Origin: Paracoccaceae bacterium
GTDB taxonomy: Bacteria > Pseudomonadota > Alphaproteobacteria > Rhodobacterales > Rhodobacteraceae
Assembly (NCBI GenBank): GCA_052031355.1
Contig: JBPEXR010000383.1
Coordinates: forward strand, 1-25,298
Direction of reading: 5' to 3'
Length of the DNA: 25,298 nt
Below the pieces are notes generated by a model. That model was not told the origin of the DNA. It saw only the letters and a list, made by a program, of their open reading frames with translations, and did not search any database. The number at the start of each line of letters is the position of its first letter. The first letter of the stretch is position 1. The position numbers and the translations under genes are program-made. Below are positions 1-20,634 of this stretch, piece by piece.

Positions 1-4
1 GCGC

Positions 5-595
5 CTAGCCGCCCAGCCGGTCCGGGCCGTGGCGCAGGATCACCGGCACGATCAGCTCTTCCTCGTCCGCGAGGTGCCGCTCCAACTGCCGCGCGAATTC
101 CGCCAGCCCGCCCCGGAAGGCGCCCGCCGCATCGCGCAGCGCCTCCGCCTGCACCGGGCCGCGCCCGGGGGCGAAAGGCGCCAGCACGTCGTTCGCCTGG
201 GCGGTGAAGCCGGCCAGCAGATCGTCCAGCGCGTGGTGGTCGCGGTCGAGGATCTCGAACCCGCGCAGCAGGCGCGGCTCCAGCTCCTGCAGGATGGGAA
301 AGTAGTGATGATCCTCGATCTGGTGGTGCCCGTGCAACTGCTGCACCAGGTGCCCGCCGAGGCGCGAGAGGTTGGCGGCGAACTGCCGCCCCTCCATCTG
401 CCCCTCCAGCATCGCCTCGGCATCGGCCTGAAGGCGGGCGGTCATGCGGCGGAACATCACGTGCCGCTCCATCCAGAACTGGACGAGGCCGGGGAAGTTC
501 GGGTGCCGCTCCCAGCCCTCGCGCGGCATCTCGCGCAGAAGCGCGCGCAACCCCTCCGGCAAAGCGCTGCGCCGGTCCAGCCCCTCGGCCGTCAT
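5..595 (-). CDS. Hemerythrin-like (HHE cation-binding) domain protein, 196 aa
   Basis: Di-iron-type motif series H(VMFRR)...LHGHHQIEDHHYFP...HHALD...HLADEEELIVP. The real start is probably ATG at 595 (MTAEGLDRR), overlapping the upstream stop (ATGA, 592-595). The ORF-track extension to 727 lies inside the ABM gene. Confidence 0.85.
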   Translation of the reverse strand: MTAEGLDRRSALPEGLRALLREMPREGWERHPNFPGLVQFWMERHVMFRRMTARLQADAEAMLEGQMEGRQFAANLSRLGGHLVQQLHGHHQIEDHHYFPILQELEPRLLRGFEILDRDHHALDDLLAGFTAQANDVLAPFAPGRGPVQAEALRDAAGAFRGGLAEFARQLERHLADEEELIVPVILRHGPDRLGG

Positions 596-918
596 CCGCG
601 GTCGTAGACCGCGGCGACGTCGTACATCACCGGCTCGAAGGCGCGGCACAGGGCGTTGAACTGGCGATTGCGCTCGCGCATCTCGGGGGTGCGCAGCATG
701 GCCAGGAAATCCTCGCGGTTGCGCCATTGCGAGTAGTTGGCGATCCGCGTCTGCGCGTCGTTGACATGCAGCCCCGCGGCGATGAACCCCGGCTGGGCCG
801 AGATGAACTGGTCATAGGCCTCGCGCAGCGCCTCCAGCAGGTCCTGGCAGGTGCCGGGCGTGACCTCGAAGGTCGTGATCACGGTCTGGGCGTCGGCTTC
901 GGTGGTGATCTTCGGCAT
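592..918 (-). CDS. Antibiotic-biosynthesis-monooxygenase (ABM, dimeric alpha-beta barrel) family protein, 108 aa
   Basis: C-terminal part of ORF 592..2004: MPKITTEADAQTVITTFEVTPG...QPGFIAAGLHVNDAQTRIANYSQW. The PGF...NYxQW pattern is typical of ABM proteins. GGGGAGG Shine-Dalgarno lies 5-6 nt before ATG 918. Confidence 0.8.
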   Translation of the reverse strand: MPKITTEADAQTVITTFEVTPGTCQDLLEALREAYDQFISAQPGFIAAGLHVNDAQTRIANYSQWRNREDFLAMLRTPEMRERNRQFNALCRAFEPVMYDVAAVYDRG

Positions 919-1004: not shown

Positions 1005-2168
1005 CTAGCGCAGAACCGCCGCCCGCTGCACCGGGCGCGGGCCGGGCACCGGCGCACCGCCGGCGCCGAAGCTGTCCAGCGCCACCGCCGTGCCGCTGAG
1101 GGCCGAGGCCTGGGCCGCCAGCCCCATGCGCACCGCCAGCGCGCCGTCGCCGAGGCCCACCTCGGGCTGGCCGCCGCCGCGCACCACCTCCAGGAACCGC
1201 TGGTGCTGGTAGAAGGTGGCGCCGTTGTGATCGCCCGCCTCCAGCAGCGCCGGATCGACGGGGATCTCGCGCACCACGGGCCCCTTGGGGGCGCGCGGGC
1301 TGGTGATCAGCTGCGCCACCGGCGGGGCGCCCAGCTCCTGCGGCCAGAAGCGGGTGGGCCCGGGCACCAGCGCCTCGATCTTTCCGGCGGGACCGAGGGC
1401 GCTGATCTCCTCCTGGTAGCGGGCGCCTTCGGCGAACATGCACAGCTCCAGCATGGCGCGGGCGCCGCCGTCGAAGTCGACCATGGCATAGCCGTGGTCC
1501 CAGATGTCGGGCGCCTCGCCGTCGTAACGCTCTTCGAGATGGTTCACCGCCTGCCCGGCCGAGGCCATGACGCGCACCGGCTCCTGCCCGGTCAGCAGGC
1601 GCATCAGGTCGAAGAAATGACAGCATTTCTCGACGAAGGTGCCGCCGGTGTTGCGGTTGAAGCGGTTCCAGTGGCCGACCTTGGGCAGGAAGGGGAAGCG
1701 ATGCTCGCGGATGGTCAGCATGCGCAGCCCGCCGGTGGCGGCCTGAACCTGGTCCGCCAGGGCCGCGATGGCGGGCATGTAGCGATACTCCATCGCCACC
1801 CAGACGGGCGCGGGGTAGTCGCGCATCAGGGCGGCGACGCGCGGCTCCTCCGCCAGGGCGGTGTAGAGAGGCTTTTCCACCAGCAGCGGCAGCGGGCGAT
1901 GTCGGGCGATCTGCTCCATCTGCGCGACATGCAGCTGGTTGGGCGAGGCGATGACCAGCGCATCGAGGCCGGGCACCGCCAGCAGATCGTCCAGCCGCTC
2001 GCAAAGCACCGCCTCGGGCGCCAGCGCGGCAGAGGCGGCGCGCATGGCCGGGTCCGGCTCGAAGATCGCGGCGACGCGGGTGTCCGCCAGCAGCTTGATG
2101 TTGCGCAGATGCTCCTGCCCCATCATGCCGCAGCCGATGATGCCGTAGTTGACGATGCTCTCGCCCAT
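1005..2168 (-). CDS. sqgA: Gfo/Idh/MocA-fold oxidoreductase; probable NAD+-dependent sulfoquinovosidase (SqgA, GH188-like)
   Basis: Rossmann GIIGCGMMG, LVEKP, MEYRY, EHRFPFLPKVGHWNR, EKCCHFFD, DHNG. Start MGESIVNY at 2168 has an AAGGAGG RBS overlapping the smoD stop. The family is certain; the SqgA assignment rests on smo context and the recalled HRFPFLxK sulfonate-binding motif. No signal peptide. Confidence 0.75.
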   Translation of the reverse strand: MGESIVNYGIIGCGMMGQEHLRNIKLLADTRVAAIFEPDPAMRAASAALAPEAVLCERLDDLLAVPGLDALVIASPNQLHVAQMEQIARHRPLPLLVEKPLYTALAEEPRVAALMRDYPAPVWVAMEYRYMPAIAALADQVQAATGGLRMLTIREHRFPFLPKVGHWNRFNRNTGGTFVEKCCHFFDLMRLLTGQEPVRVMASAGQAVNHLEERYDGEAPDIWDHGYAMVDFDGGARAMLELCMFAEGARYQEEISALGPAGKIEALVPGPTRFWPQELGAPPVAQLITSPRAPKGPVVREIPVDPALLEAGDHNGATFYQHQRFLEVVRGGGQPEVGLGDGALAVRMGLAAQASALSGTAVALDSFGAGGAPVPGPRPVQRAAVLR

Positions 2169-2178
2169 CGGGGCCTCC

Positions 2179-2880
2179 TTACTTGATCCGCGCGACATAG
2201 CGCGCGCGGGCCGTGTCGATCCAGTTGCGTGACACCTCGGCCACCGTGCCGTCCTGCGCCCAGGACCGCCTTTCGGCCAGAAGGCAGGGCTGGCCCGCTT
2301 TCGGGCCGAAGCCCGGCGGCGCCCAGCCCGGCACCGGCCCCATGCCCAGCTGATCCTCGGCCCGGGTGATCCACAGGCCGAACACCCGGCGATAATGCAG
2401 GTAGAGGGATTCGGACAGCCGCCGCGCGTCGATCTGCCGGGCATAGGCGCCGTCCAGCCAGATCTCCTCCAGCACGCAGGGCTGCCCGGAAAGGGAACGC
2501 AGGCGGCGGATGCGGTGCGCCTCCTGCGCGCGGCCGAAGGGCGGCAGATCGTCCGGCTTGACGCATCGATCGACCGACAGAACCTCCGCCGTGGGCAGGC
2601 CGCCGCCGCCGATCAGCTCGACCCGGAAGAAAGCGTAGACGCTTTGCACGTCGGCCCGCACGCGCACGTAGTTGCCCGAGCCCTGGCGCCGCTCCAGCAG
2701 GCCCTTGGCCGTCAGTTCCGCCAGCGCCTTGCGCAGGGTGCCGACGGAGGTGCCAAGCTCGGCCGCCAGCGCGCGCTCAGGCGGCAGACGCTCGCCGTCG
2801 ATGAAGCGGCCGGCGTGAATTTCCCGCACCAGCATCTCGGCGATCTGGATGTAGACTGGCAGGGCGTTCTGGTGCGTCAT
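2179..2880 (-). CDS. smoD: GntR family (HutC/UTRA-type) transcriptional regulator, SmoD-like
   Basis: N-terminal wHTH (LPVYIQIAEML...RLPPERALAAELGTSVGTLRKAL...RRQGSGNYV) plus UTRA-like C-terminus; divergent from smoC. Confidence 0.85.
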   Translation of the reverse strand: MTHQNALPVYIQIAEMLVREIHAGRFIDGERLPPERALAAELGTSVGTLRKALAELTAKGLLERRQGSGNYVRVRADVQSVYAFFRVELIGGGGLPTAEVLSVDRCVKPDDLPPFGRAQEAHRIRRLRSLSGQPCVLEEIWLDGAYARQIDARRLSESLYLHYRRVFGLWITRAEDQLGMGPVPGWAPPGFGPKAGQPCLLAERRSWAQDGTVAEVSRNWIDTARARYVARIK

Positions 2881-2920
2881 CGGGGCGGGCCTGGGGCGGC
2901 GTTTGGGGGGCGGGCGGCAA

Positions 2921-2961
2921 ATTGATGCACCATTGATCTACCCATCGGGCGGTGTTACGCA
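2921..2961 (+). promoter_or_regulatory. Putative smoCBA promoter (-35 TTGATC 2933-2938, 17 nt spacer, TGn-extended -10 TACGCA 2956-2961) overlapped by an 11-bp direct repeat
   Basis: The only AT-rich patch of the smoD-smoC intergenic region. ATTGATGCACC (2921-2931) is followed directly by ATTGATCTACC (2932-2942). Confidence 0.45.
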
Positions 2962-2991
2962 AGGAAAAACGCCACCACGCAGGAGCCGCGG

Positions 2992-4149
2992 ATGACCGTT
3001 GTCCCCATCACCTCGCCGGACCTCGACGCGGTCGAGGTTTCCTGGTTCTCGGCGCTTTGCTCGGACGATTACCGCCACCTTGGCGTGCCGGAGGGGGACC
3101 TGCGCTCTTCCTGGGCGCACTGCCGTGACATCCTGCTGGAGGCCGAGGCCCAGGGCTTTCGCAACATCCTGTGCCCCTCCTCCTACCAGGTCGGGCAGGA
3201 CACGCTCAGCTTCGTGGCCGGCTGCGCGCCGCTGACCCAGCGCATCAACATGCTGGCCGCGGTGCGCTGCGGCGAGATGCAGCCGATCATGCTGGCGCGC
3301 ACCCTCGCCACGCTCGACCACATGCTGGAGGGGCGGCTGACCGTCAACATCATCTCCAGCGACTTCCCCGGGGAAAAGGCCGAGAGCGCCTACCGCTACC
3401 AGCGCAGCCGCGAGGTGGTGGAGATTCTCAAGCAGGCCTGGACGCAGGAGACGATCGACTACCAGGGCGAGATCTACCAGTTCTCCGGCCTGACGACCGA
3501 CCCGGCCAAGCCCTACCAGCAGAACGGCGGGCCGCTGCTGTACTTCGGCGGCTATTCGCCCCCGGCGCTGGAGCTTTGCGGCCAGCATTGCGACGTCTAC
3601 CTGATGTGGCCCGAAACCCGCGAGATGCTGGCCGAACGGATGCGCGCGGTGCACGCGGTGGCCGAACGCTACGGGCGCACGCTCGACTATGGCCTGCGGG
3701 TGCACGTCATCGTTCGCGACACCGAGGCCGAGGCCCGCGAATACGCGGCCGAGCTAGTCGGCAAGCTGGACGATGCCCAGGGCGAGGCGATCCGCGCCCG
3801 CGCGCTGGATTCCACTTCGCTGGGCGTCAGCCACCAGGCGCGCAACCGCGAACTGGCCGACATGGAAGGTTTCATCGAGCCGAACCTCTGGACCGGGATC
3901 GGGCGCGCGCGCTCGGGCTGCGGCGCGGCGCTTGTCGGCTCCACCGATCAGGTTATGTCGGCGCTGGAGGACTATCGGAAGATGGGCATCCGCGCCTTTA
4001 TCCTGTCGGGCTATCCGCATATCGAGGAGGCGCGGCACTTCGGCAGCCGCGTGCTGCCGGGGATGAAGACCTGCTCGCTGCCGCATGAATATGGCCGGGT
4101 GCCGGCCGAAACGCCCAAGACGCCCCTCGGGGCAGGAGACCGCCGCTGA
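2992..4149 (+). CDS. smoC: LLM-class flavin-dependent monooxygenase; sulfoquinovose monooxygenase SmoC-like
   Basis: Luciferase-like/SsuD-related signatures (NILCPSSYQVGQD, LAAVRCGEMQPIMLAR..ATLDHMLEGRLTVNIIS, PLLYFGGYS, FILSGYPH). Closely resembles Agrobacterium SmoC as I recall it. AGGAG RBS present; smoC-smoB-smoA order. Confidence 0.85.
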   Translation: MTVVPITSPDLDAVEVSWFSALCSDDYRHLGVPEGDLRSSWAHCRDILLEAEAQGFRNILCPSSYQVGQDTLSFVAGCAPLTQRINMLAAVRCGEMQPIMLARTLATLDHMLEGRLTVNIISSDFPGEKAESAYRYQRSREVVEILKQAWTQETIDYQGEIYQFSGLTTDPAKPYQQNGGPLLYFGGYSPPALELCGQHCDVYLMWPETREMLAERMRAVHAVAERYGRTLDYGLRVHVIVRDTEAEAREYAAELVGKLDDAQGEAIRARALDSTSLGVSHQARNRELADMEGFIEPNLWTGIGRARSGCGAALVGSTDQVMSALEDYRKMGIRAFILSGYPHIEEARHFGSRVLPGMKTCSLPHEYGRVPAETPKTPLGAGDRR

Positions 4150-5036
4150 TGGAACGCATTTCCCTGACCGACGAGTTGAGCCTGTCGCGCATCGTCTACG
4201 GCATGTGGCGGCTCGGCGACGATGCCGACACCTCGCCCGAGCACGTGCGCGCCAAGATCGAGGCCTGCCTCGAGCAGGGCATCACCTCCATCGACCAGGC
4301 GGACATCTACGGCGACTACGGCGCCGAGGCGCTGCTTGGCGCGGCGCTGACCCCGGACCTGCGCGACCGGGTGGAGATCATCACGAAGTGCGACATCGTC
4401 GCCCCGGTGGGCATCTACGCGGACCGCAGCGTCAAGCACTACGACACCTCGCGCGCGCATATCACCGCCTCGGTCGAGCGCAGCCTCCAGCAGATGCGGA
4501 TCGAGCATATCGACCTGCTGCTGATCCACCGCCCCGACCCGCTGATGGACCACCACGAGACCGGCGCGGCGCTGGACGAGCTGGTGCACGCGGGCAAGGT
4601 GCGCGCGGTGGGCGTGTCCAACTTCCGCCCGCATGACTTCACGCTGCTGCAATCGGCGATGAAAACGCCCCTGGCCACCAACCAGATCGAGCTGTCGCTG
4701 GTCGAGCACGCGCCCTTCACCAACGGCGATCTGGCGTTCCTGCAGGAACGCGGCATCCCGCCCATGGCCTGGTCGCCCCTGGCGGGCGGCGCGCTGCTGG
4801 CGGGGGGCAACCTGAAGCTGGGCGAGGCGCTGCGCGCCGAGGCCGCGCGGCTGGACACCGATCCGGCCGCCGTCGCGGTGGCTTGGCTGCTGGCCCATCC
4901 GGCGCGTATCCTGCCGGTGATGGGCACAAACACGCTTGACCGGATTCGCCGCCTCGGCGCGGCCTGCGACATCGCGCTGGACCGCGAGGCCTGGTTCCGC
5001 CTCTACACCGCTGCCCTGGGACGGGAGGTGGCCTGA
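4149..5036 (+). CDS. smoB: Aldo/keto reductase; 6-oxo-glucose (6-dehydroglucose) reductase SmoB-like
   Basis: AKR motifs LSRIVYGMWR, DQADIYG, ITKC, DLLLIHRPDP, GKVRAVGVSNF, NQIE, MAWSPLAGG, PVMGT. TGATG coupling to smoC. Confidence 0.85.
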   Translation: MERISLTDELSLSRIVYGMWRLGDDADTSPEHVRAKIEACLEQGITSIDQADIYGDYGAEALLGAALTPDLRDRVEIITKCDIVAPVGIYADRSVKHYDTSRAHITASVERSLQQMRIEHIDLLLIHRPDPLMDHHETGAALDELVHAGKVRAVGVSNFRPHDFTLLQSAMKTPLATNQIELSLVEHAPFTNGDLAFLQERGIPPMAWSPLAGGALLAGGNLKLGEALRAEAARLDTDPAAVAVAWLLAHPARILPVMGTNTLDRIRRLGAACDIALDREAWFRLYTAALGREVA

Positions 5037-5551
5037 TGGCCCAACCCCGCCCCCGGACCGAGACCTTTGCCCCCGGCCCCGACAGCACCGGCGATTTCCG
5101 CGCCGCGCTGGGGCGCTTCGGCACTGGCGTGACGGTGGTGACCTGCGACAGCAGCGAGGGGCCGATGGGGATCACCGCGAACAGCTTCGCCTCCGTCTCG
5201 CTGGACCCGCCGCTGGTGCTGTGGTCGCCGGGGCGGTTCTCGCGCCGCTTCGCGCATTACGCCGGGGCCGAGCATTTCGCCATCCACGTCATGGGCAACG
5301 ATCAGATCGAGCTGTGCCGCGGCTTCGCCCGGGCGCCGGACGCCTTCGCGGGCCTCGACTGGCGGCGCAGCGAACGCGGCGTGCCGCTGATCGAGGGGTG
5401 CCTGGCGCGGTTCGAATGCCGGCAGGTCGCCCAGCACGAGGGCGGCGATCACGCGATCATCGTGGCGGAGGTGCTGCGCGTGACCCATCGCGCCGGCGCG
5501 CCGCTATTGTTCTACGATGGGAAATACGGGGGATTCGACGCGCCCGAGTGA
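5036..5551 (+). CDS. smoA: Flavin reductase (NADH:FMN), SmoA-like
   Basis: FRAALGRFGTGVTVVT, GITANSFASVSLDPPLVLWS, GGDHAIIV. TGATG coupling to smoB. Confidence 0.9.
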   Translation: MAQPRPRTETFAPGPDSTGDFRAALGRFGTGVTVVTCDSSEGPMGITANSFASVSLDPPLVLWSPGRFSRRFAHYAGAEHFAIHVMGNDQIELCRGFARAPDAFAGLDWRRSERGVPLIEGCLARFECRQVAQHEGGDHAIIVAEVLRVTHRAGAPLLFYDGKYGGFDAPE

Positions 5552-5597
5552 GGACGGCTGCCCCGCGCCGCGGGGCCGGAGGGAGGGACCGGCGGCC

Positions 5598-6185
5598 ATG
5601 ACCGCGCTACTGGGGCTGATCGCCCCGCTTCAGATCGTCAACGACCATGTCCTGCGGCTGGGCCGCGGGCTGGCCATCGTCGCGCTGGCCGCGATGGTGG
5701 TGGCGATCCTCGTTCAGGTGTTCTTCCGCTACGTGATCGGCAACGCCCTGCCCTGGCCGGACGAGGCCGCCCGTTTCCTGATGCTGTGGATGACCGGGCT
5801 GATCGCCCCCTCGGCCTACCGCCGGGGCGGGTTCGTCGCCATCGACATGGCGGTGCGGCTGCTGCCCCCGCGCGCCGCGGCGGTGCTGGCGCTGGCGCTT
5901 CTGGGCCTGTCGCTGGCAGTGCTGCTGGTCGGGCTGCAGCTCAGCTGGAACCACGTGAATTCCGGCTGGCTCTTTGCCTCTTCCTCGCTGAAGCTGCCGC
6001 TGGGGCTGATCGGCATGAAGGCGGTGAAGATCAAGCTGGCCTGGATGTACATGTCCCTTCTGGTGGGCCTGGTGCTGCTGATCGCCGTGAACGTCGAGCT
6101 GATCCTGCGCAGCCTGGTCGAGCTGCTGGGCGGCGGCGCGCGGCTGCGCCCCCTGCCCGACATGCCCATGCCGGAGGCGGAATGA
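5598..6185 (+). CDS. TRAP transporter small permease (DctQ family)
   Basis: Four hydrophobic segments, QVFFRYV..ALPWPDEAARFLMLW, RGGFVAIDM. Start ATG 5598 after GGGAGG. Confidence 0.9.
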   Translation: MTALLGLIAPLQIVNDHVLRLGRGLAIVALAAMVVAILVQVFFRYVIGNALPWPDEAARFLMLWMTGLIAPSAYRRGGFVAIDMAVRLLPPRAAAVLALALLGLSLAVLLVGLQLSWNHVNSGWLFASSSLKLPLGLIGMKAVKIKLAWMYMSLLVGLVLLIAVNVELILRSLVELLGGGARLRPLPDMPMPEAE

Positions 6186-6186
6186 C

Positions 6187-7476
6187 GTGCTGATCTGGTT
6201 CCTGCCCCTCTTCCTGCTGTTCCTGGCCCTGGGCCTGCCGGTCTTCTTCGGCCTGCTGGCGGCGCCCGGGCTGCTGCTCTGGCTCAACGGGCAGGAGCGC
6301 GACATCGCCCTGCTCTACCGCAACGTCTACAACGGCATGGACAGCTTCCCGCTGATGGCCATCCCCTTCTTCATGCTGGCAGGCGAGTTGATGAACCGCG
6401 GCGGGATCACCATGCGCCTGGTGGAGTTCAGCCAGGCGATGATGGGCCACCTGCGCGGCGGGCTGGCGCATGTGAACGTGCTGTCCTCGATGCTCTTCGC
6501 CGGGCTCTCGGGCTCGGCGGTGGCCGATACCTCGGCGCTGGGCTCGATGCTGATCCCGGCGATGGAGAAACAGGGCTACTCCCGCCGCTTCTCGGCGGCG
6601 ATCACCGCGGCGTCCTCCGTCATCGGGCCGATCATCCCGCCCTCGGGCATCATGATCATCTACGCCTACGTGATGGGCGAAAGCGTCGCGGCGCTGTTCC
6701 TTGCGGGCATCGTGCCGGGCATCCTGGTGGGCCTGGGGCTGATGCTGATGGTCCGCGTCATGGCGCAGCGCTACGACTTCCCGGTCGCCACCCGCCGGCA
6801 CAGCTGGGGCGAGCGGGGCCAGGCCAGCCTCAAGGCCTTCTTCCCGCTGATGACGCCGGTCATCATCCTGGGCGGCATCCTGGGCGGGGTCTTCACCCCG
6901 ACCGAGGCCGCGGCGGTAGCGGTGGCCTATGCGCTGGTGATCGGCCTTTTCGTGCTGCGCACCCTGCGCCCGGGCGATCTGCCGGAGGTGCTGGGCCGGG
7001 CGGCGGCAACCTCGGCGGTGGTGCTGCTGCTGGTGGGCGCGGCGATGGCCTTCAAGACCGTCGTCAGCCTGTCACACGCGCCCGAGATCCTGGCCGAGAT
7101 CATCCTGTCGCTCAGCGAGAACCCCCTGGTCCTTCTGCTGCTCATCAACCTGCTGCTTTTCATCGTCGGCATGTTCCTGGACGCGGGCCCCGCGATCATC
7201 ATCCTGGGGCCGATCCTGGGGCCGATCTTCACCGACCTGGGCGTGCACCCGGTGCATTTCGCCATCATCATGTCGGTGAACCTGACCGTGGGCCTGGCGA
7301 CCCCGCCCATGGGGCTGGTGCTTTTCGTCGCCTCCTCGGTCTCGGGCGAGCGGGTGGAACGGATCGCCCGCGCCATCCTGCCATTCCTGGCGGTGGAGAT
7401 CGCGGTGATCTTCCTGATCACCTATGTCCCCGCCATTTCCATGACGATCCCGCGATTGACGGGCTTCGTGAACTAG
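6187..7476 (+). CDS. TRAP transporter large permease (DctM family)
   Basis: FPLMAIPFFMLAGELM, GLSGSAVAD, GPIIPPS, GVFTPTEAA, DLGVHPVHF, GLATPPMG. GTG start. Confidence 0.93.
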   Translation: MLIWFLPLFLLFLALGLPVFFGLLAAPGLLLWLNGQERDIALLYRNVYNGMDSFPLMAIPFFMLAGELMNRGGITMRLVEFSQAMMGHLRGGLAHVNVLSSMLFAGLSGSAVADTSALGSMLIPAMEKQGYSRRFSAAITAASSVIGPIIPPSGIMIIYAYVMGESVAALFLAGIVPGILVGLGLMLMVRVMAQRYDFPVATRRHSWGERGQASLKAFFPLMTPVIILGGILGGVFTPTEAAAVAVAYALVIGLFVLRTLRPGDLPEVLGRAAATSAVVLLLVGAAMAFKTVVSLSHAPEILAEIILSLSENPLVLLLLINLLLFIVGMFLDAGPAIIILGPILGPIFTDLGVHPVHFAIIMSVNLTVGLATPPMGLVLFVASSVSGERVERIARAILPFLAVEIAVIFLITYVPAISMTIPRLTGFVN

Positions 7477-7504
7477 AACCCAAGGCTTCATCAGGGAGGA
7501 AAAG

Positions 7505-8563
7505 ATGCTGAAGGGAACCATGAAGGCGCTGCTCACGGCCACGTTGCTGGCCGGATCGGCGGTGGCGGCGCAGGCGGCGGATTTCACGCTGCGCGCGACC
7601 GCGAACTCCAACGAGAACGACGAGGATTACGACGGCCTCGTCGTCTTCAAGAATTATGTCGAGGCGGCCTCGAACGGCGCCATCGAGGTGGAGCTGTTCA
7701 TCGGCACGCAGCTTTGCTCCAAGGGGGCGGAATGCCTGCAGGGCGTCGCCGACGGCTCGATCGACATCTACATCTCCACCTCCGGCGGCGCGGCGGGGAT
7801 CTTTCCCTACGTGCAGGTGCTGGACCTGCCCTACCTGATGGCCGACGACCGCGTGGCCGAGGCAGTGCTGCAAAGCGATTTCGTGGACACGGTCCGCGAC
7901 ATGGCGCTGGAGGATTCGGGCGGCAAGATCCGCCTGATGACCATCGGCAACACCGGCGGCTGGCGCAACTTTGCCAACACCAAGCGGCGCATCCAGACCC
8001 CCGCCGACATGGAAGGGCTGAAGATCCGCACCGTGGTCGCCGACCTGCCGCAGGAACTGGTGAAGGCCCTCGGCGCCTCGCCCACCCCGATCCCCTGGCC
8101 GGAGCTGTTCACCTCCTTCCAGACCGGCGTGGTCGAAGGCTCCAAGAACGGCATCACCGACATCATGGGCATGAAGTTCCCCGATGCCGGGCTGCAGTAT
8201 GTCACCCTGGACGGGCACGCCTACATGGGCGCCCTGTGGTGGATGAGCGAGGACCGCTTCCAGTCGCTTCCCGACGATCTGAAGCGCGTGGTGGTGGACG
8301 GCTTCTACCAGCTGCAGCAGGCGACCTTCGCCTCGCCGAAGCGCAAGTCGATCCAGGCCTACGAGGATTTCGTCGCCGGCGGCGGCGATCTTTACGTCCT
8401 GACGCCCGAGGAGAAGGAGCAGTTCAAGACCGCGGCCGAGCCCGTCTACGACTGGTTCAAGTCCAACGTCGATGGCGGCGAGGAGGTCTTCAACGCCCTG
8501 ACCGAGGCCGTCGCCGCGGCCGAGGAAGAGATCGAACAGGCGCGCCAGCGCGCGATGGAATAG
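7505..8563 (+). CDS. TRAP transporter substrate-binding protein (DctP family), probably for sulfoquinovose/sulfoquinovosyl-glycerol
   Basis: Sec signal peptide (..AVAAQAA|DF), LDLPYL, GLKIRT (conserved anion-binding Arg), SPTPIPWPELFTSFQTGVVEG. Substrate inferred from context only. Confidence 0.88.
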   Translation: MLKGTMKALLTATLLAGSAVAAQAADFTLRATANSNENDEDYDGLVVFKNYVEAASNGAIEVELFIGTQLCSKGAECLQGVADGSIDIYISTSGGAAGIFPYVQVLDLPYLMADDRVAEAVLQSDFVDTVRDMALEDSGGKIRLMTIGNTGGWRNFANTKRRIQTPADMEGLKIRTVVADLPQELVKALGASPTPIPWPELFTSFQTGVVEGSKNGITDIMGMKFPDAGLQYVTLDGHAYMGALWWMSEDRFQSLPDDLKRVVVDGFYQLQQATFASPKRKSIQAYEDFVAGGGDLYVLTPEEKEQFKTAAEPVYDWFKSNVDGGEEVFNALTEAVAAAEEEIEQARQRAME

Positions 8564-8570
8564 GCGCCAT

Positions 8571-8594
8571 GGCGGGGCGCTTCGGCGCCCCGTC
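8571..8594 (+). terminator. GC-rich hairpin with C(UUCG)G tetraloop between convergent dctP and the Sel1 gene
   Basis: GGCGGGGCGC-TTCG-GCGCCCCGTC, 10-bp stem with one G-U pair. No U-tract, so it may be a 3' stabiliser or Rho-assisted terminator. Confidence 0.55.
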
Positions 8595-8617
8595 CCACCG
8601 GCCTCTCGCCCCCCGCC

Positions 8618-9145
8618 TCAGCGGAAGGGGTACATCCAGGCCCGGTAATCGTCGATCAGCACATGCGCCTTCTCGATCTGCTCCGCCGTCATCTTCTTGA
8701 CCACCTCTTCCTGGCTGATCGCCGCGTCGGGGTCGCCGCCGATCGCCGAGAGGACGTACCACATGTAGGCGCGCACCAGGTCCGGCGCGGGCAGCCCGAT
8801 CCCCAGCTCGTAATACCAGCCGACGCCCGACTGCGCCCCGGGGTGGCCCTTCATCGCGCTGCGCAGGTACCACTCGAACGCGCGCTCGGGGTCCCGCTCC
8901 ACCCCCAGGCCGAGGGCGTACATCACGCCGATCAACTCCTCCGCGTCGGCGTTGCCGGACCGCGCCGCGGGCCAGAGGGCGGCGCGCGCCTCGGCGAAGC
9001 GGCCGGCCTCCATCAGGTCGCGCGCTTCCTCGATCTCTGCCGCCGCGGGCTGTGCCGCCAGGCCCGCCAGCAGTGCCAGCGCCAAACGGGTGCCGCGGCG
9101 CCCATGGCCGCGCTTCTGGCCGCCGCGCTGGCGCCGCCACTTCAT
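8618..9145 (-). CDS. Secreted Sel1-repeat (SLR/TPR-like) protein
   Basis: Signal-like RLALALLAGLAAQPAAA|E, then Sel1 repeats (GNADAEELIGVMYALGLGVERDPERAFEWYLRSAMKGHPGAQSGVGWYYELGIG..PDLVRAYMWYVLSA). Start is uncertain: ATG 9145 or TTG 9085. Confidence 0.8.
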   Translation of the reverse strand: MKWRRQRGGQKRGHGRRGTRLALALLAGLAAQPAAAEIEEARDLMEAGRFAEARAALWPAARSGNADAEELIGVMYALGLGVERDPERAFEWYLRSAMKGHPGAQSGVGWYYELGIGLPAPDLVRAYMWYVLSAIGGDPDAAISQEEVVKKMTAEQIEKAHVLIDDYRAWMYPFR

Positions 9146-10417
9146 GCCGATACGCAATATCCCCTCCCCCAGCCGATCGATGAGGCCGAGTTTCGCCCGG
9201 TCGAGCCTGCGAAGGCAAGGCTGGGGCAGCTGCTGTTCTACGACCCGATCCTGTCGGGCAATCGCAACATTTCCTGCGGCACCTGCCATCACCACGACCA
9301 CGGCGGCTCCGACGGGCTGAGCCTGGGGATCGGCGAAGGCGGCACCGGGGTGGGCCCGGCCCGGCGCCCGGGCAGCGGGGCTGCGCGCATCGCCAAGCGC
9401 ATCCCGCGCAACGCCCCGGCGCTGTGGAACCTCGGGCACCGCGACATCCGCGTGCTGTTCCACGACGGGCGGCTGGAGCCGTCGGAGCTTTACGGCAACG
9501 GCTTCAACTCCCCGGCCGAGGAATGGCTGCCCGCGGGCCTTTCCAGCCTGCTGGCGGCGCAGGCCCTTTTCCCGCTGGTCGCGCAGTTCGAGATGGCCGG
9601 CAACCCGGCCGAGAACGAGGTCGCCGGCGCCGTGCACGACCGGATCGATGCCGCCTGGCCGATCCTGGCCAAGCGCGTGCGGGTGATCCCCGCCTACGGC
9701 CGCGCCTTCGTGGAAGCCTTCGCCCATATCGACGCGCCCGAGCAGGTGAGCATCGTCGAGATCGCCGAGGCGCTGGCCGCCTTCATCGACGCCGAATGGC
9801 GCAGCCACGACAGCCCCTTCGACGCCCACCTGCGCGGCACCGCCCCGCTGGAAGGCGCAGCCGCCCGCGGGATGCAGCTGTTCTACGGGCGCGCGGGCTG
9901 TGCCGCGTGCCATTCCGGCAAGCTGCTGAGCGACCAGGGGTTTCACGCTCTCGGCCTGCCGGCCTTCGGCCCCGGACGCACCCGGCGGTTCGACCCGATG
10001 CCCCGCGACACCGGGCGCATGGCCGAAAGCGACCGGCTGGAGGATGCTTACCGCTTCCGCACGCCGATGCTGCGCAACGTCGCCCTGACCGCGCCCTACG
10101 GGCACAACGGCGCCTATCCGACGCTGGAGGGGATCGTGCGCCACCACCTGGACCCCGCCGCCGCCCGCGCCGCCTGGACGCCGGACATGGCCCGACTGCC
10201 CGAGGCGCCCTGGCTGGCAGAAATCGATTTCGTCATCGCGCAGGACAGCCGGGAGATGGCGCGCCAGGCGCGCGCGCTCGACATCCGCCCGCGCGTGCTT
10301 TCGGATACGGAGGTCGCCGATCTTGTCGCCTTCCTGCACGCGCTGACCGGTCAAAGCGCGCTGTCGCGCCCGCTGGGGCGGCCCGCGGCGGTGCCCTCGG
10401 GCCTGCCGGTGGACTAG
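9104..10417 (+). CDS. Periplasmic diheme cytochrome c peroxidase/MauG-superfamily enzyme
   Basis: Two CXXCH motifs (CGTCH, CAACH), LGQLLFYDPILSGNRNISC, RNAP, FRTPMLRNVALTAPY, and a short signal MAALLAAALAPPLHA|D at ATG 9104. Confidence 0.9.
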   Translation: MAALLAAALAPPLHADTQYPLPQPIDEAEFRPVEPAKARLGQLLFYDPILSGNRNISCGTCHHHDHGGSDGLSLGIGEGGTGVGPARRPGSGAARIAKRIPRNAPALWNLGHRDIRVLFHDGRLEPSELYGNGFNSPAEEWLPAGLSSLLAAQALFPLVAQFEMAGNPAENEVAGAVHDRIDAAWPILAKRVRVIPAYGRAFVEAFAHIDAPEQVSIVEIAEALAAFIDAEWRSHDSPFDAHLRGTAPLEGAAARGMQLFYGRAGCAACHSGKLLSDQGFHALGLPAFGPGRTRRFDPMPRDTGRMAESDRLEDAYRFRTPMLRNVALTAPYGHNGAYPTLEGIVRHHLDPAAARAAWTPDMARLPEAPWLAEIDFVIAQDSREMARQARALDIRPRVLSDTEVADLVAFLHALTGQSALSRPLGRPAAVPSGLPVD

Positions 10418-10421
10418 GCCG

Positions 10422-11909
<1,488 letters not shown>

Positions 11910-11947
11910 GGCGGCCTCCGCTTTCTGGTTCTGCGTTCAGGGAACAC

Positions 11948-11978
11948 AAAAACGCCGGGGCCCCGCAAGGCCCCGGCG
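11948..11978 (-). terminator. Intrinsic terminator between glpV and glpK
   Basis: Minus strand reads CGCCGGGGCC-TTGCGG-GGCCCCGGCG-TTTTTG: a perfect 10-bp stem plus a U5 tract. Confidence 0.75.
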
Positions 11979-11989
11979 CGTCTTCGGAC

Positions 11990-13705
<1,716 letters not shown>

Positions 13706-13780
13706 GATTTGGCTCCTCCCATTTGAACCGATCTTTCGAAATATTGCCCCCGGCGACGACCGCCGTGGGGAAGCGTCCGC

Positions 13781-14053
13781 CTAGACCCAGCGGAAGACCG
13801 CGAAGGCGTAGATCGCGCAGACGATCAGCGCATAGGCTTGATGCGCATCCGTCAGGCCCAGCCAGGCAAGATTGATGAAGGCCGAGCCCAGAAGGGTAAT
13901 GAACAGCCGGTCGCCGCGCGTCGTCTCGATACGCAGAACGCCGCGGCGCGGGGTTTCGGGAAAGCGGATCGCAAGCACGGTGAACAGCACCAGAAGCGCC
14001 GCGATCACGCCGAAGAAGGCCGCCGTGGGCCATGTCCAGGCCATCCAGCTCAT
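13781..14053 (-). CDS. glpU: Small membrane subunit of the glycerol ABC system (DUF2160, GlpU-like), 90 aa
   Basis: MSWMAWTWPTAAFF...RRGVLRIETTRGDRLFITLLGSAFI. Lies between permease and SBP. Confidence 0.8.
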   Translation of the reverse strand: MSWMAWTWPTAAFFGVIAALLVLFTVLAIRFPETPRRGVLRIETTRGDRLFITLLGSAFINLAWLGLTDAHQAYALIVCAIYAFAVFRWV

Positions 14054-14081
14054 GCCGATACCCTTTCGGTTGGGGTGCGCA

Positions 14082-16950
<2,869 letters not shown>

Positions 16951-16961
16951 GACCCGCTCCT

Positions 16962-18050
16962 TCAAGCCGCTGCGGCGTAGGGCGCCGGCGCGACAAGGGC
17001 GCCGTTCTGCGCGAAGACGTAGACATGCGCGGGGTCGAGGTAGACCCGCAGCGCCTGGCCGGGCTCCAGTTCGTGCACTCCGTGCACTAGCCCGACCCAG
17101 CGTTCAGATCCGTGGTCGAGGTGCACGAAGGTTTCCGATCCTGTCAGCTCGGTCACATGAAGCGTAACCGGGAATTCCATAGCCGTGCCCGACTGGCGAC
17201 GGAGGCCCAGGTGATTGGGCCGAAAGCCCGCGGTGTAGCGCCCATCCGGCACCTCGGCGAGCGCACCCGCGGCCGGGGCCCGCTGGCCTTCGCCGAAATG
17301 CACTTCGGCGCCGCGTTTTTCGACCGGAATGAAGTTCATCGGCGGGTCGGAGAACACACGCGCGGTTGTCGCGTCGACCGGGGCACGGTAGACCTGCGGG
17401 GTCGGGCCGAACTGCGTCACCCGCCCCTCCCAGAGGGTTGCGGTCTGCCCGCCCAGTAGCAGCGCCTCCTCGGGCTCCGTGGTGGCGTAAACGAAGATCG
17501 CGCCGGACTCCTCGAAAATCTTGGGAATCTCGACGCGCAATTCCTCGCGCAGCTTGTAATCGAGATTGGCCAGAGGCTCGTCCAGCAGGACCAGGCCGGC
17601 GCCCTTCACCAGCGCTCGTGCCAGCGCGCATCGCTGTTGCTGGCCACCCGAGAGCTCCAGCGGGCGGCGGTCCAGCAACGCGGTCAGCTGCATCATCTCG
17701 GCCGTCTCTCGCACCGCGCGGTCGATGGTCTGGCGATCCGCCCCCTTCAGACGCAGCGGCGAGGCGATGTTGTCGTAGACTGTCATCGACGGGTAGTTGA
17801 TGAACTGCTGGTAAACCATGGCGACCTGCCGGTCCTGCACCCGCATGCCGGTAACGTCGCGACCCTCCCAGAGGATGCGCCCCTCGGTGGGCACGTCGAG
17901 CCCGGCCATCAGGCGCATCAGCGTGGTCTTGCCCGCTTGCGTCGGCCCAAGCAGCACGTTCATCGTGCCGCCCTGCAACTCCAGATCGGTAGGGTGGATA
18001 TGCACCTGCCCCCCCACTGTCTTTGCCGCGCCGTCCAATACCAAGCTCAT
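16962..18050 (-). CDS. glpS: Glycerol ABC transporter ATP-binding subunit
   Basis: Walker A GPTQAGKT, signature LSGGQQQR, Walker B LLDEP, H-loop altered to YATTE. Confidence 0.88.
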   Translation of the reverse strand: MSLVLDGAAKTVGGQVHIHPTDLELQGGTMNVLLGPTQAGKTTLMRLMAGLDVPTEGRILWEGRDVTGMRVQDRQVAMVYQQFINYPSMTVYDNIASPLRLKGADRQTIDRAVRETAEMMQLTALLDRRPLELSGGQQQRCALARALVKGAGLVLLDEPLANLDYKLREELRVEIPKIFEESGAIFVYATTEPEEALLLGGQTATLWEGRVTQFGPTPQVYRAPVDATTARVFSDPPMNFIPVEKRGAEVHFGEGQRAPAAGALAEVPDGRYTAGFRPNHLGLRRQSGTAMEFPVTLHVTELTGSETFVHLDHGSERWVGLVHGVHELEPGQALRVYLDPAHVYVFAQNGALVAPAPYAAAA

Positions 18051-19681
18051 CTCGCCTCTCCCTGTCCCCGGCCCGCCGCGGCGGCCAGGGGCGCGCGCGT
18101 GTCCGGCGCCCTGCCCAGTAGCCCGGCGATGCAGTCGTCTATGGCCTGCGCCTCGGCGGCGGTCAGGCGCAGCCCCAGCTTGCTGCGGCGCCAGAGCACG
18201 TCCTCGGCGCTGCGGGCGTATTCGCGCTCCACCAGCCAGCGCAGTTCGGCCTCGGTCAGCGTGGCGCCGAAGTCGGTGCCAAGGTCCGCGGCGCGCTGCG
18301 CCTCACCCAGGATCTCCCGCGCTTCGGTGCCGTAGGCGCGCGCCAAGCGGTCGGCCCAGCCCGGGCTGAGAAAAGGATAGTCGCGCCGCAGAGAGTCGAT
18401 CAATGCCGGCACGCCGTCGTGCGGAAAATCGCCCCCCGGCAGGCTGACGCCGGCGGTCCAGTCGCCGCGGCTGTTGCCGAAATGCGGGGCGATCCGGGCC
18501 ATCGCGGCCTCGGCGAGGCGCCGGTAGGTAGTGATCTTGCCGCCGAAGACGTTAAGGATCGGCGCGCCGCCCTTCGTGTCGAGCTTCAGAACGTAGTCGC
18601 GCGTCGCCGCCGTGGCGGAGGTGGCGCCGTCGTCATAAAGGGGGCGCACGCCGGAATAGGTCCAGACGACGTCCGCGTCCGTCAGCTGCTGCTTGAAGTA
18701 GCCATTCGCGAAATCCAGGAGGTAGGCTTGCTCCTCCGGGGTGCAGACCGCGGGCTCTGCGGGGTCGGCGTGGTCGGCATCGGTGGTGCCGATCAGGGTG
18801 AAATCCCGCTCGTAGGGGATGGCGAAGATGATCCGCCCGTCGCTGCCCTGGAAGAAATAGCACTTGTCGTGCTCGTAGAGGCGCCGGGTGACGATATGAC
18901 TGCCGCGCACCAACCGCACCCCGGCGGCGGAGGCGACGCCGGCGGTCTCGCGCAGCACCTGCGCCACCCAGGGCCCGCCGGCGTTCACCAGCATCCGCGC
19001 CCGCTCCTGCCGCTCGGCGCCGGTTTCGGTATCGCGCAGGGTCACCGTCCAGTGGTCGGCGGCCCGCTCGGCGCGCAGAACCTCGGTGCGGGTGAGGATG
19101 CGCGCGCCATGCGCCGCGGCATCGCGGGCGTTCAGCACCACGAGGCGGCTGTCCTCGATCCAGCAGTCGGAATATTCGAAAGCGGTCTGGAACTCCTCGC
19201 GCAGCGGCGCGCCCTCCGGGGTGCCGGGCAGCGACAGCGTGCGGGTGCCGGGCAGGATCTTTCGCCCGCCCATGTGATCGTAAAGGAAAAGGCCCAGCCG
19301 GATCATCCAGCGCGGGCGGCGGCCCTTCATCCAGGGCATGACGCGGGCCAGAAGGCGGCTGGCGGGCGTCTCGCTTTCGAAGCGCATGCCGGGGTGGTAG
19401 GGCAGCACGAAGCGCAGCGGCCAGGAGATATGCGGCATGGCGCGCAGCAGCACCTCGCGTTCGATCAGCGCCTCGCGCACCAGGCGGAACTCGAAATACT
19501 CCAGGTAGCGCAGCCCGCCGTGGAACAGCTTGGTCGATGCCGAGGACGTAGCCGAGGCAAGGTCGTTCTTCTCTGCCAGCGTGACGCTCAGGCCGCGACC
19601 CGCCGCGTCGCGGGCGATGCCGCATCCGTTGATGCCGCCCCCGATGACGAAAAGATCGCTGATCGCGCTGTCCTGGCCCAT
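18047..19681 (-). CDS. glpD: FAD-dependent glycerol-3-phosphate dehydrogenase
   Basis: DLFVIGGGINGCGIARDAAGRGL, ATSSASTKLFHGGLRYLE, RLVRGSHIV, WTYSGVRPL, GGKITTYRRLAE. Start MGQDS at 19681 with GGAGGG RBS; ATGA overlap with glpS. Confidence 0.95.
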   Translation of the reverse strand: MGQDSAISDLFVIGGGINGCGIARDAAGRGLSVTLAEKNDLASATSSASTKLFHGGLRYLEYFEFRLVREALIEREVLLRAMPHISWPLRFVLPYHPGMRFESETPASRLLARVMPWMKGRRPRWMIRLGLFLYDHMGGRKILPGTRTLSLPGTPEGAPLREEFQTAFEYSDCWIEDSRLVVLNARDAAAHGARILTRTEVLRAERAADHWTVTLRDTETGAERQERARMLVNAGGPWVAQVLRETAGVASAAGVRLVRGSHIVTRRLYEHDKCYFFQGSDGRIIFAIPYERDFTLIGTTDADHADPAEPAVCTPEEQAYLLDFANGYFKQQLTDADVVWTYSGVRPLYDDGATSATAATRDYVLKLDTKGGAPILNVFGGKITTYRRLAEAAMARIAPHFGNSRGDWTAGVSLPGGDFPHDGVPALIDSLRRDYPFLSPGWADRLARAYGTEAREILGEAQRAADLGTDFGATLTEAELRWLVEREYARSAEDVLWRRSKLGLRLTAAEAQAIDDCIAGLLGRAPDTRAPLAAAAGRGQGEAR

Positions 19682-19690
19682 GCGCCCTCC

Positions 19691-19855
19691 CGAAACGAAC
19701 ACGAACGAACCACCATTCGCGGCTTCGGTCAAGCTTCACGTTCGATTATATTCGGAAATGCGGGTTGGCAGGCAATATCACCTTAAGAACGCACCTTTTC
19801 GCGCAAGACGGCCCAGTGCCTTGCGAGGGCGCGCAAAATCGAACACGCTGCGAAC
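19691..19855. promoter_or_regulatory. glpD/glpR divergent control region: TATAAT -10 for glpD (minus strand, 19750-19745) and an array of TTCG/CGAA repeats, probable GlpR operators
   Basis: CGAA at 19691, 19696, 19702, 19706, 19840, 19851; TTCG at 19716, 19724, 19741, 19751, 19798. Several pairs are 10-11 bp apart. The core resembles the E. coli GlpR half-site (TGTTCG). Confidence 0.6.
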
Positions 19856-19872
19856 CCAAGCAGGGGAGCCGC

Positions 19873-20634
19873 ATGTCACAGACCTTCCGTCACCCGGAAA
19901 TCCTGGAAATCGCCCGCAAGCAGGGCAAGGTCACGGTCGAGGCGTTGGCCGAACATTTCGACGTGACGGTGCAGACGATTCGCCGCGACCTGACCGAGCT
20001 GGCCGAGGCCGGCAAGCTGGAGCGGGTGCACGGCGGCGCGGTGCTGCCCTCGGGCGTGGCGAACATCGGCTACGAGGACCGGCGCGGGCTGCACGAGGCC
20101 GCCAAGGCCGCCATCGCCCGCGCCTGTGCCGCCGCCATCCCCGAGGAAAGCAGCGTCTTTCTGAACATCGGCACCAGCACCGAGGCGGTGGCGCGCGAGT
20201 TGCTGCATCACCAGCACCTCTTGGTGGTCACCAACAACATGAACGTCGCCAACATCCTGGTGGCGAACCGCTCGTGCGAGATCATCGTCGCGGGGGGGAC
20301 GCTGCGCCGCTCGGACGGCGGACTGATGGGCACGCTGACCACGCGCACGATCGAGCAGTTCAAGTTCGACTACGCCGTCATCGGCTGTTCGGCGATGGAC
20401 GAGGACGGCGACCTGCTGGATTTCGACGTGCAGGAGGTGGGCGTCAGCCAGACGATCATCCGGCAGGCGCGGCGCACCTTCCTGGTTTCCGACCATTCCA
20501 AGTTCCACCGCAGCGCGCCGGCGCGCATCGCCTCGCTGCGCGACATCGACAGTTTCTTCACCGATACGGAGCTGCCCGGCCGCCTGCCCGAGGCCTGCGC
20601 CGAATGGGGCACGCGGGTCGTCATCTGCCAATAG
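19873..20634 (+). CDS. glpR: DeoR-family glycerol-3-phosphate regulon repressor
   Basis: HFDVTVQTIRRDL..L..AGKLERVHGGA, FLNIGTSTEAVA, VVTNN, AGGTLRRSDGG, SDHSKF. Start MSQTFRH at 19873 with GGGGAG RBS. Confidence 0.93.
   Translation: MSQTFRHPEILEIARKQGKVTVEALAEHFDVTVQTIRRDLTELAEAGKLERVHGGAVLPSGVANIGYEDRRGLHEAAKAAIARACAAAIPEESSVFLNIGTSTEAVARELLHHQHLLVVTNNMNVANILVANRSCEIIVAGGTLRRSDGGLMGTLTTRTIEQFKFDYAVIGCSAMDEDGDLLDFDVQEVGVSQTIIRQARRTFLVSDHSKFHRSAPARIASLRDIDSFFTDTELPGRLPEACAEWGTRVVICQ

Follow-up and report, generated by a model that had tools for sequence, protein, structure and literature searches.

Bacterial diheme peroxidases are commonly divided into two kinds. In canonical bacterial cytochrome c peroxidases (bCcPs) the second heme (heme 2) has His/Met ligation and the enzyme detoxifies H2O2, and in the MauG-type enzymes heme 2 has His/Tyr ligation and a bis-Fe(IV) state is formed. 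Here we analyse P0001, a gene of this superfamily, in a 25,298-nucleotide stretch of DNA from a Paracoccaceae bacterium (assembly GCA_052031355.1, contig JBPEXR010000383.1; the whole stretch is hereafter the window). The encoded protein has His at the position of the inter-heme Trp and His at that of the heme-2 distal ligand. The main new result is the gene context. The enzyme probably has an accessory part in the use of sulfo-sugars that is so far undescribed, because its gene travels with that of a Sel1-repeat protein and with a sulfoquinovose (SQ)-type TRAP transporter across several alphaproteobacterial families.

The closest solved structure by family profile is MbnH of Methylosinus trichosporium (6E1C; E 6.3e-58), which is also among the top Foldseek matches. 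Like P0001, it has two CXXCH motifs, a PYxHxG motif and a C-terminal extension, and its gene also adjoins a gene for a periplasmic partner, which is MbnP there and the Sel1 protein here. MbnH forms bis-Fe(IV) (PMC11892367). At the ligand site 14 residues past the His of the PYxHxG motif (+14), however, MbnH has Tyr (in DIY), whereas P0001 has His (in RHH).

BthA of Burkholderia thailandensis (6NX0) is the sole characterised member without an inter-heme Trp, with Ser257 in its place, and it aligns with P0001 in one full-length stretch (residues 27-417). It has Tyr463 as ligand, Lys444 in place of the Ca2+ site and a C-terminal disulfide, whereas P0001 has His at the ligand position and keeps the Ca-site residues. 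The BthA variants S257A and S257W showed that the inter-heme residue is dispensable (PMC6405878). Laboratory analogues of the P0001 family exist in the engineered MauG Y294H and BthA Y463H, which have His exactly at the position of His348 of P0001 and a His/His heme 2. Both lose the bis-Fe(IV) signature, and BthA Y463H retains normal peroxidase kinetics and H2O2 turnover (PMC6405878). Unlike these mutants of Tyr-ligated enzymes, the P0001 family also has an altered inter-heme residue and insertions of its own.

The canonical bCcPs (1EB7, MacA 4AAM, Shewanella 3O5C) share with P0001 a Gln/Pro/Glu pocket, the Ca-site residues and an electron-transfer function of the second heme (predicted in P0001), and some P0001 orthologues carry the canonical Met at heme 2. 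They differ in their His/Met heme 2, the Trp of FWDGR and a distal His loop (GHGW), all three of which P0001 lacks. P0001 is also ~100 residues longer, with insertions at residues 80-100 and 350-395. A distant CcP-fold diheme protein with a bis-His C-terminal heme is the rubber oxygenase RoxA, a 71-kDa dioxygenase without peroxidase activity (PMC6311187), in which the second His (H641) lies >120 residues past the PYFH motif, compared with +14 in P0001.

A recurring module of transporter, Sel1 protein and diheme enzyme

The genes of the window that enter the comparison between genomes are the following.

9104..10417, forward strand: P0001, diheme gene of the CCP_MauG superfamily, 437 aa, stop-free translation, start codon uncertain
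8618..9145, reverse strand: divergent Sel1-repeat gene (PF08238), mature part ~139 aa, 5' end overlapping or abutting the diheme gene
5517..8563, forward strand: DctQ, DctM and DctP genes of a TRAP transporter (sulfoquinovose-type; Pfam), upstream flank of the Sel1-diheme pair
2992..5551, forward strand: sulfo-SMO genes for a luciferase-like SQ monooxygenase, an aldo-keto reductase and a flavin reductase (Pfam)
1005..2444, reverse strand: GFO/IDH/MocA oxidoreductase (GFO), candidate NAD+-dependent sulfoquinovosidase (SqgA-like), Pfam match from residue 98, start probably at ~2153

Genomes from 200 genera of the source family (Rhodobacteraceae) were surveyed. Orthologues of the diheme gene (>=53% identity) occur in 51 of these genomes and a SmoC homologue in 87. 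The two are found together in 35, at a distance of 2.8-10.6 kb in 25 of them. A divergent Sel1 gene adjoins the diheme gene in 41 of 45 distinct clade-A loci examined. The Sel1 protein contains invariant clusters of Trp and Tyr and an almost invariant C-terminal WMYPFR, and its identity between genomes (73-89%) is above that of the enzyme (67-77%). DctP proteins encoded next to the Sel1-diheme pair in other genomes are 78-88% identical, and GFO homologues flank the pair there too.

The same arrangement is found without SmoC. In 11 of 12 genomes that have the enzyme and lack SmoC, the DctQMP genes are followed by Sel1, the diheme gene, ~3.3 kb and GFO. An order with genes for a kinase, an aldolase and an isomerase between the diheme gene and GFO is found in SmoC-less genomes. 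One SmoC-less genome has the diheme gene at the head of eight abutting same-strand genes, the other seven encoding a PfkB kinase, a DeoC-type aldolase, an isomerase-like protein, GFO, an aldose epimerase, an aldehyde dehydrogenase and a 2-hydroxyacid dehydrogenase. Judged by its predicted gene content, this run is a sulfo-EMP-like (sulfoglycolysis-type) set. The TRAP-Sel1-diheme unit recurs beside two different SQ pathways. In a sub-clade with Met at residue 348, nested in the His348 clade, the diheme gene instead comes straight after the flavin reductase gene on its downstream side, without TRAP genes and without Sel1.

Beyond the Rhodobacteraceae, the order DctM-DctP-Sel1-diheme was found in four genomes from three other alphaproteobacterial families (loci L078-L081 in G259, G110, G297 and G150). 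FHDGR is present in all four, and RHH in all three loci that reach that far. The Sel1 proteins are 77-86% and the DctP proteins 82-88% identical. These identities (77-88%) are above the expectation from vertical descent, which suggests that the TRAP-Sel1-diheme module moved horizontally as a unit between alphaproteobacterial families.

Clade-B paralogues (45-52% identity) also have FHDGR and RHH, and their gene closes an ordinary sugar operon (Dak, FGGY kinase, isomerase-like protein, aldose epimerase). The window's own genome holds a clade-B copy with FFHDGR (L001, G000:C58:1-2141), which immediately follows an aldose-1-epimerase-like gene and is truncated where the contig ends. At L054:7251-8795 and L072:1399-2985, clade-B diheme genes are convergent with genes for a conserved secreted protein of the FG-GAP/ASPIC-UnbV type and for a ROK regulator, by a sugar ABC transporter. 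The distant subfamily members P0134 and P0143 have unrelated housekeeping genes as neighbours, and the SQ link is therefore confined to part of the subfamily. A metagenomic homologue (P0124) beside TauD-family and aldo-keto reductase genes was considered as a sulfo-SDO-linked case and set aside, because its reductase and the SmoB-like one in the window share only 25% identity. In the literature on SQ clusters we found no link to a cytochrome c peroxidase or a Sel1 protein.

Family, fold and reading frame

P0001 scores 114.5 bits with PF03150 (CCP_MauG; Pfam gathering cut-off 25.6) and has a weak PF21419 match at residues 320-345, a point of likeness to RoxA. Among curated subfamily models TIGR03981 (His-Xaa-Ser system-associated MauG-like protein) scores highest (241.9 bits, under its cut-off of 340), and neither the MbnH model TIGR04039 (123.8 bits; cut-off 362.85) nor the MauG model TIGR03791 (115.7 bits; cut-off 443.85) is reached. 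TIGR03981 is also the best curated match for all 72 diverse relatives tested (best E-value 2.4e-89). An AlphaFold2 model, with 72 relatives as input, has a pLDDT of 94.8 and a pTM of 0.92. Foldseek matches this model to MacA 4AAM, Shewanella 3O5C, MbnH, MauG and BthA with probability 1.0 and target TM-scores of 0.57-0.80, the top matches being canonical bCcPs in the active form (TMt 0.75-0.80). Given these fold matches, and since no curated model is reached, P0001 is a genuine member of the bCcP/MauG superfamily that is near no characterised branch.

The diheme and Sel1 genes start head to head. With the diheme ATG at 9104 on the forward strand, a Sel1 start at ATG 9145 or TTG 9085 on the reverse strand would give a 42-bp overlap or an 18-bp gap. 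A start at ATG 9104 leaves a 15-residue leader without a charged n-region. CTG 9050 is the sole in-frame upstream alternative before the antisense Sel1 body and would yield a normal signal peptide. Several diheme orthologues are annotated with equally short leaders, and others have clear MKKLFH...A-x-A leaders. A scan of positions 8400-10600 for consensus promoters and terminators found none.

Heme sites and active-site residues

An exhaustive homologue search gave 643 clusters (50% identity) with E below 1e-30. Conservation is given below for the 120 closest clusters (70-77% identity) and for 123 full-length diverse representatives. The sites of P0001, all on the forward strand, are these.

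9275..9289: CGTCH, residues 58-62, attachment motif of heme 1 (peroxidatic), His62 as proximal ligand
9335..9337: Glu78 (GEGG for the GHGW loop), aligned by HMMER with the distal His71 of the P. aeruginosa CcP 1EB7
9410..9412: Asn103 of PRNAP, putative Ca2+ ligand, equivalent to MauG Asn66, aligned to prNsp of canonical bCcPs
9458..9472: FHDGR (TTC CAC GAC GGG CGG), with His120 (codon 9461-9463) for the inter-heme Trp of FWDGR
9560..9595: distal pocket of heme 1, Gln153, Pro157, Glu163 and Met164, conserved in the family
9899..9913: CAACH, residues 266-270, attachment motif of heme 2 (electron transfer), His270 as proximal ligand
10088..10111: TAPYGHNG (Thr329, Pro331, His334), invariant in the 120 close clusters
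10142..10147: His347-His348 pair, His348 at the position of Met275 (P. aeruginosa CcP) and Tyr294 (MauG) by alignment, predicted distal ligand of heme 2

Both CXXCH motifs, one per domain, are invariant in the family alignment, as are C58, C61 and H62 individually. The family profile places its fhDgR on fwDgR of Geobacter MacA and CcpA, and therefore His120 occupies the position of the inter-heme Trp. On the heme-2 side, bases 10094-10147 are PYGHNGAYPTLEGIVRHH, in which the codon of His334 is 10103-10105 and that of His348 is 10145-10147; His348 lies 14 residues past His334 of PYGHNG. HMMER places the RHH of P0001 on the DIY of MbnH 6E1C, and in a bridging MauG-like sequence, L009, the +14 column is that of the Met ligand of canonical bCcPs. 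In numbering, Pro277+17 of MauG is Tyr294 and Pro331+17 of P0001 is His348, with which the HMMER coordinates (315 to 261) concur. Sub-region queries for residue alignments with MauG or BthA gave chance matches only for residues 66-200 and no matches for residues 337-437, so the equivalence to Tyr294 rests on the numbering arithmetic together with the direct MbnH and bCcP alignments. No true MauG orthologue (TIGR03791) was found above the cut-off in 301 alphaproteobacterial genomes. L009, the best TIGR03791 match, was rejected as such an orthologue, being nearer the canonical bCcPs, and was used as a bridging sequence only.

An earlier description of this gene, made from the window's letters (the original prediction), had placed His in FHDGR at codon 9461-9463 and a second His 14 residues past the His of TAPYxH(N/D/S)G. 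The bases agree with the first reading, as does the profile, and the second is borne out by the bases and by the MbnH and bCcP alignments. Profile and HMMER alignments place neither Met nor Tyr at the heme-2 ligand position, and no Trp between the hemes. The proposal of a distinct subfamily that is neither ordinary CcP nor MauG therefore holds: P0001 has no Met or Tyr ligand and no inter-heme Trp, and stays under the curated cut-offs for MauG, MbnH and TIGR03981. Bis-His ligation of heme 2, which the original prediction called probable, is the natural reading of the sequence.

The pattern Q-x3-P-x5-E in the heme-1 pocket (Q153, P157, E163) is present as predicted, but the special likeness to MauG that was seen in it is lost, since MacA and the canonical bCcP 1NML (QAKGPVQASVEM) have the same spacing. 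The pattern is thus a mark of the superfamily and not a MauG signature. The MauG pocket residues Q103, P107 and E113 agree with PDB entry titles. Across the 123 representatives E163 is present in all, the Pro in 118, the Met in 116 and the Gln in 112. Residue 78 is Glu in 120 of the 120 close clusters and Glu or Thr in the wider family. Thr329 and Pro331 correspond to Thr275 and Pro277 of MauG, which are among its Ca ligands (PMC6405878); in MauG and in bCcPs, Thr and Pro carbonyls bind Ca2+. Q153, P157, E163, N103, T329 and P331 are all kept in 120 of 120 close clusters, the Ca2+ site being a putative one read from its residues.

Variation at residues 120, 347 and 348

Residue 348 is His in 90 of the 123 representatives, with Tyr in 23, Lys in 3, Met in 2 and Glu in 2. 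At residue 120, 65 representatives have Trp and 41 have His, whereas residue 347 varies freely. Residue 348 behaves like a ligand position. The commonest combination at 120/347/348 is Trp/His/His (37), followed by His/His/His (30). In the 120 closest clusters, His is found at residue 348 in 116 and at residue 347 in 102 (Gln in the other 18), and residue 120 is His in 107, Val in 11, Phe in 1 and Tyr in 1; close relatives with Gln or Asn at residue 120 also occur. The recurrence of His348 and His120 in these clusters greatly exceeds what chance would give. Of the two adjacent His residues, His348 is much the better candidate for the heme-2 ligand.

The residue set is non-canonical, as had been claimed, but it is not singular: within a very large clade His348 is found in most members, usually together with a retained Trp (Trp/His/His in 37 of 123). 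Nor is His120 essential, given an abundant sub-clade (P0062, P0070, P0112 and relatives) that has Val at the inter-heme site (FVDGR) and keeps RHH. One FVDGR cluster comprises 103 member sequences on 28 contigs. The original prediction that no Trp hole-hopping relay exists is right in that the Trp is lacking. It says little about function, since His120 is replaceable in relatives and the inter-heme residue of BthA is dispensable.

Residue 348 is only His or Met in 51 sequences (50 from genome loci, and P0001), with Met in 6 of the 50. In a maximum-likelihood tree of the Rhodobacteraceae sequences, well-supported branches require that His348 changed to Met at least three independent times. This free exchange with Met, the ligand of canonical peroxidases, argues that heme 2 is an electron-transfer heme. 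The engineered MauG Y294H and BthA Y463H variants favour the same view.

Proposed function and alternatives

We propose, with a probability of about 0.5, that P0001 is a periplasmic peroxidase-like diheme enzyme with a bis-His electron-transfer heme 2, co-inherited with SQ uptake and catabolism. The proposal starts from residues, fold, conservation and gene linkage, which the analysis showed, and from these we infer heme ligation, H2O2 use and a physiological role. Heme 1 (His62) keeps the peroxide-activating pocket (Gln153, Pro157, Glu163, Met164). Because it lacks the distal His loop, with Glu78 where P. aeruginosa CcP has His71, it would probably be five-coordinate and react with H2O2 without reductive activation. 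Heme 2 (His270) would be low-spin and bis-His, with His348 or its neighbour His347 as sixth ligand and His/Met ligation in some orthologues. It would serve as an electron-transfer heme like that of canonical peroxidases and not as half of a MauG-type bis-Fe(IV) pair. The putative Ca2+-site residues are retained, and the inter-heme Trp is replaced by a non-essential His.

The enzyme would belong to a transferable module of SQ-type TRAP transporter, Sel1 protein and diheme enzyme, and its gene would probably be co-expressed with SQ uptake and catabolism and with that of the Sel1 accessory protein. While sulfo-sugars are being used, the enzyme could remove peroxide or employ it to oxidise a small substrate in the periplasm. 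Two sources of peroxide could plausibly explain the linkage: the H2O2 of algae, to which marine bacteria are exposed when they consume algal sulfo-sugars, and leakage from flavin monooxygenases.

Several points weigh against this proposal. No biochemistry was found for any member of the diheme subfamily. The top hidden Markov model matches are MauG-like families (TIGR03981, MbnH) and not canonical peroxidases, and a strictly conserved partner gene is commoner with protein-modifying members of the superfamily. The diheme gene is missing from 52 of the 87 SmoC-bearing genomes and is therefore not needed for the core pathway, nor is it obvious what a periplasmic peroxidase would do for a sugar pathway in the cytoplasm. 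The genomes are related and do not count as independent samples. The structural model is heme-free, and the heme ligation put forward here is predicted from homology. Finally, four close relatives have His347 followed by Ile or Val at residue 348 (H-I/H-V). The iron ligand of the pair may therefore be His347 instead of His348, or heme 2 may be five-coordinate in those four proteins.

The alternative that survives best, and that we consider unlikely, is a protein-modifying oxidase of the MauG/MbnH type, which would use H2O2 to oxidise aromatic residues in Sel1 or DctP and so produce a modified residue or cofactor. The nearest curated model (TIGR03981, 241.9 bits) and the nearest structure by profile (MbnH, E 6.3e-58) are MauG-like, and P0001 and MauG alike have no distal His loop at heme 1. 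A Sel1 neighbour that is more conserved than the enzyme, with its invariant Trp/Tyr clusters and near-invariant WMYPFR, would suit such a substrate, and BthA needs no inter-heme Trp for bis-Fe(IV) (PMC6405878). The ligand tells against modification: P0001 has no Tyr there, and His at this position in MauG and BthA abolishes the bis-Fe(IV) state (PMC6405878). So do the exchanges of His for the canonical peroxidase Met, at least three in number, and the Met348 sub-clade and clade-B paralogues, which have no Sel1 neighbour. A complex prediction for Sel1 and the diheme protein (residues 16-437, two hemes included) gave a score of 0.01, compared with a threshold mark of 0.32, which is no evidence either way.

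It is distinctly unlikely that P0001 is an ordinary periplasmic H2O2 scavenger whose place beside the SQ genes is inherited synteny, without functional meaning. Sixteen of the 51 genomes with the diheme gene lack SmoC and 52 genomes have SmoC only, distant subfamily members sit among unrelated housekeeping genes, and the far-side flank of the diheme gene varies, all of which would fit this reading. Against it, the Sel1-diheme pair and the TRAP genes stand beside two SQ pathways and recur in other families at 77-88% identity. Moreover, the diheme gene of one genome starts an abutting same-strand run of eight genes, sulfoglycolysis-type ones among them, and one sub-clade has been relocated to just after the flavin reductase gene.

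More speculatively, the module could be a dedicated, undescribed periplasmic redox step of SQ metabolism, which we likewise hold to be improbable. Within this reading, the enzyme could be a "sulfite peroxidase" of bacteria, which would use H2O2 to oxidise the sulfite from desulfonation. Alternatively, Sel1 or the transporter's binding protein could undergo an oxidative maturation carried out by an enzyme of the bCcP family. If maturation were true, the chemistry would proceed without the Tyr ligand and the Trp relay that are thought necessary for such modification.

A peroxide-independent diheme cytochrome that oxidises a periplasmic compound derived from sulfur or sugar (e.g. sulfite from SQ desulfonation), or relays its electrons to the respiratory chain, or else a sulfite peroxidase that consumes both sulfite and H2O2, would account for the linkage to sulfonate-degrading clusters that end in sulfite. 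Other marine SQ clusters include genes for a periplasmic sulfite dehydrogenase (PMC12780224), a bis-His heme 2 would sit at a lower potential than a His/Met one and so suit electron output, and distant relatives with a bis-His second heme perform non-peroxidase chemistry (RoxA, PMC6311187). This last alternative is very unlikely, because the peroxide-handling Gln/Pro/Glu/Met pocket is strictly conserved, clade-B paralogues occur in ordinary sugar operons without any apparent sulfonate-related gene, and sulfo-EMP-like clusters need not release sulfite. To our knowledge, sulfite oxidation has no precedent in the bCcP/MauG fold, which also counts against it.

The wider gene neighbourhood

The genes at 1005-20634 resemble a utilisation island for sulfoquinovosyl-glycerol, with the SqgA-like GFO, a GntR regulator, SmoC/B/A and the TRAP transporter; the GntR regulator is among the neighbours of the diheme gene in the window. 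In R. denitrificans, the GH188 protein SqgA is encoded upstream of the sulfo-SMO cluster (PMC12780224). After the TRAP genes of the island come genes for a glycerol kinase, an ABC transporter, a glycerol-3-phosphate dehydrogenase and a DeoR regulator, and the diheme gene is adjoined by the convergent glycerol kinase and glycerol-3-phosphate module. The glycerol half of the island is not conserved beside the diheme gene in other genomes, where that flank varies. The diheme gene does lie between the smo and glp modules, as the original prediction described, but the conserved unit is TRAP-Sel1-diheme and the glp side is not part of it.

A Pfam scan of 20 neighbouring open reading frames of the window revealed no radical-SAM/His-Xaa-Ser genes, and no gene for a cognate substrate protein of the MauG type (mau operon, mbnP) was present among the 20 frames scanned; the Sel1 gene is there instead. 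At the edge of the window, a 201-aa open frame (2-607, forward strand) has no Pfam match and an unusually high first-position GC of 0.93, and may not be a real gene. The metagenomes listed for the locus are of marine-sediment, mangrove, marine and freshwater DNA, with no RNA data set among them.

Significance for the family and for sulfo-sugar use

According to a 2025 paper, conservation of the inter-heme Trp and of the Ca site is high, and BthA alone departs from it (PMC11892367). The P0001 clade (643 clusters at 50% identity) is large and uncharacterised; in it, His is the natural residue at the heme-2 ligand position, and the Trp is frequently missing. It supplies natural counterparts of the Y294H and Y463H mutants, on which the effect of the ligand on reactivity could be tested. 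The original prediction is, as a whole, partly supported: the residue set on which it centred is common in the family and in part variable, and the context that carries meaning is the TRAP-Sel1-diheme module. The SQ catabolic clusters of the marine Roseobacter group have so far been described without these diheme and Sel1 periplasmic genes, and the conserved module suggests that an accessory function is still missing from the picture of how sulfo-sugars are used.

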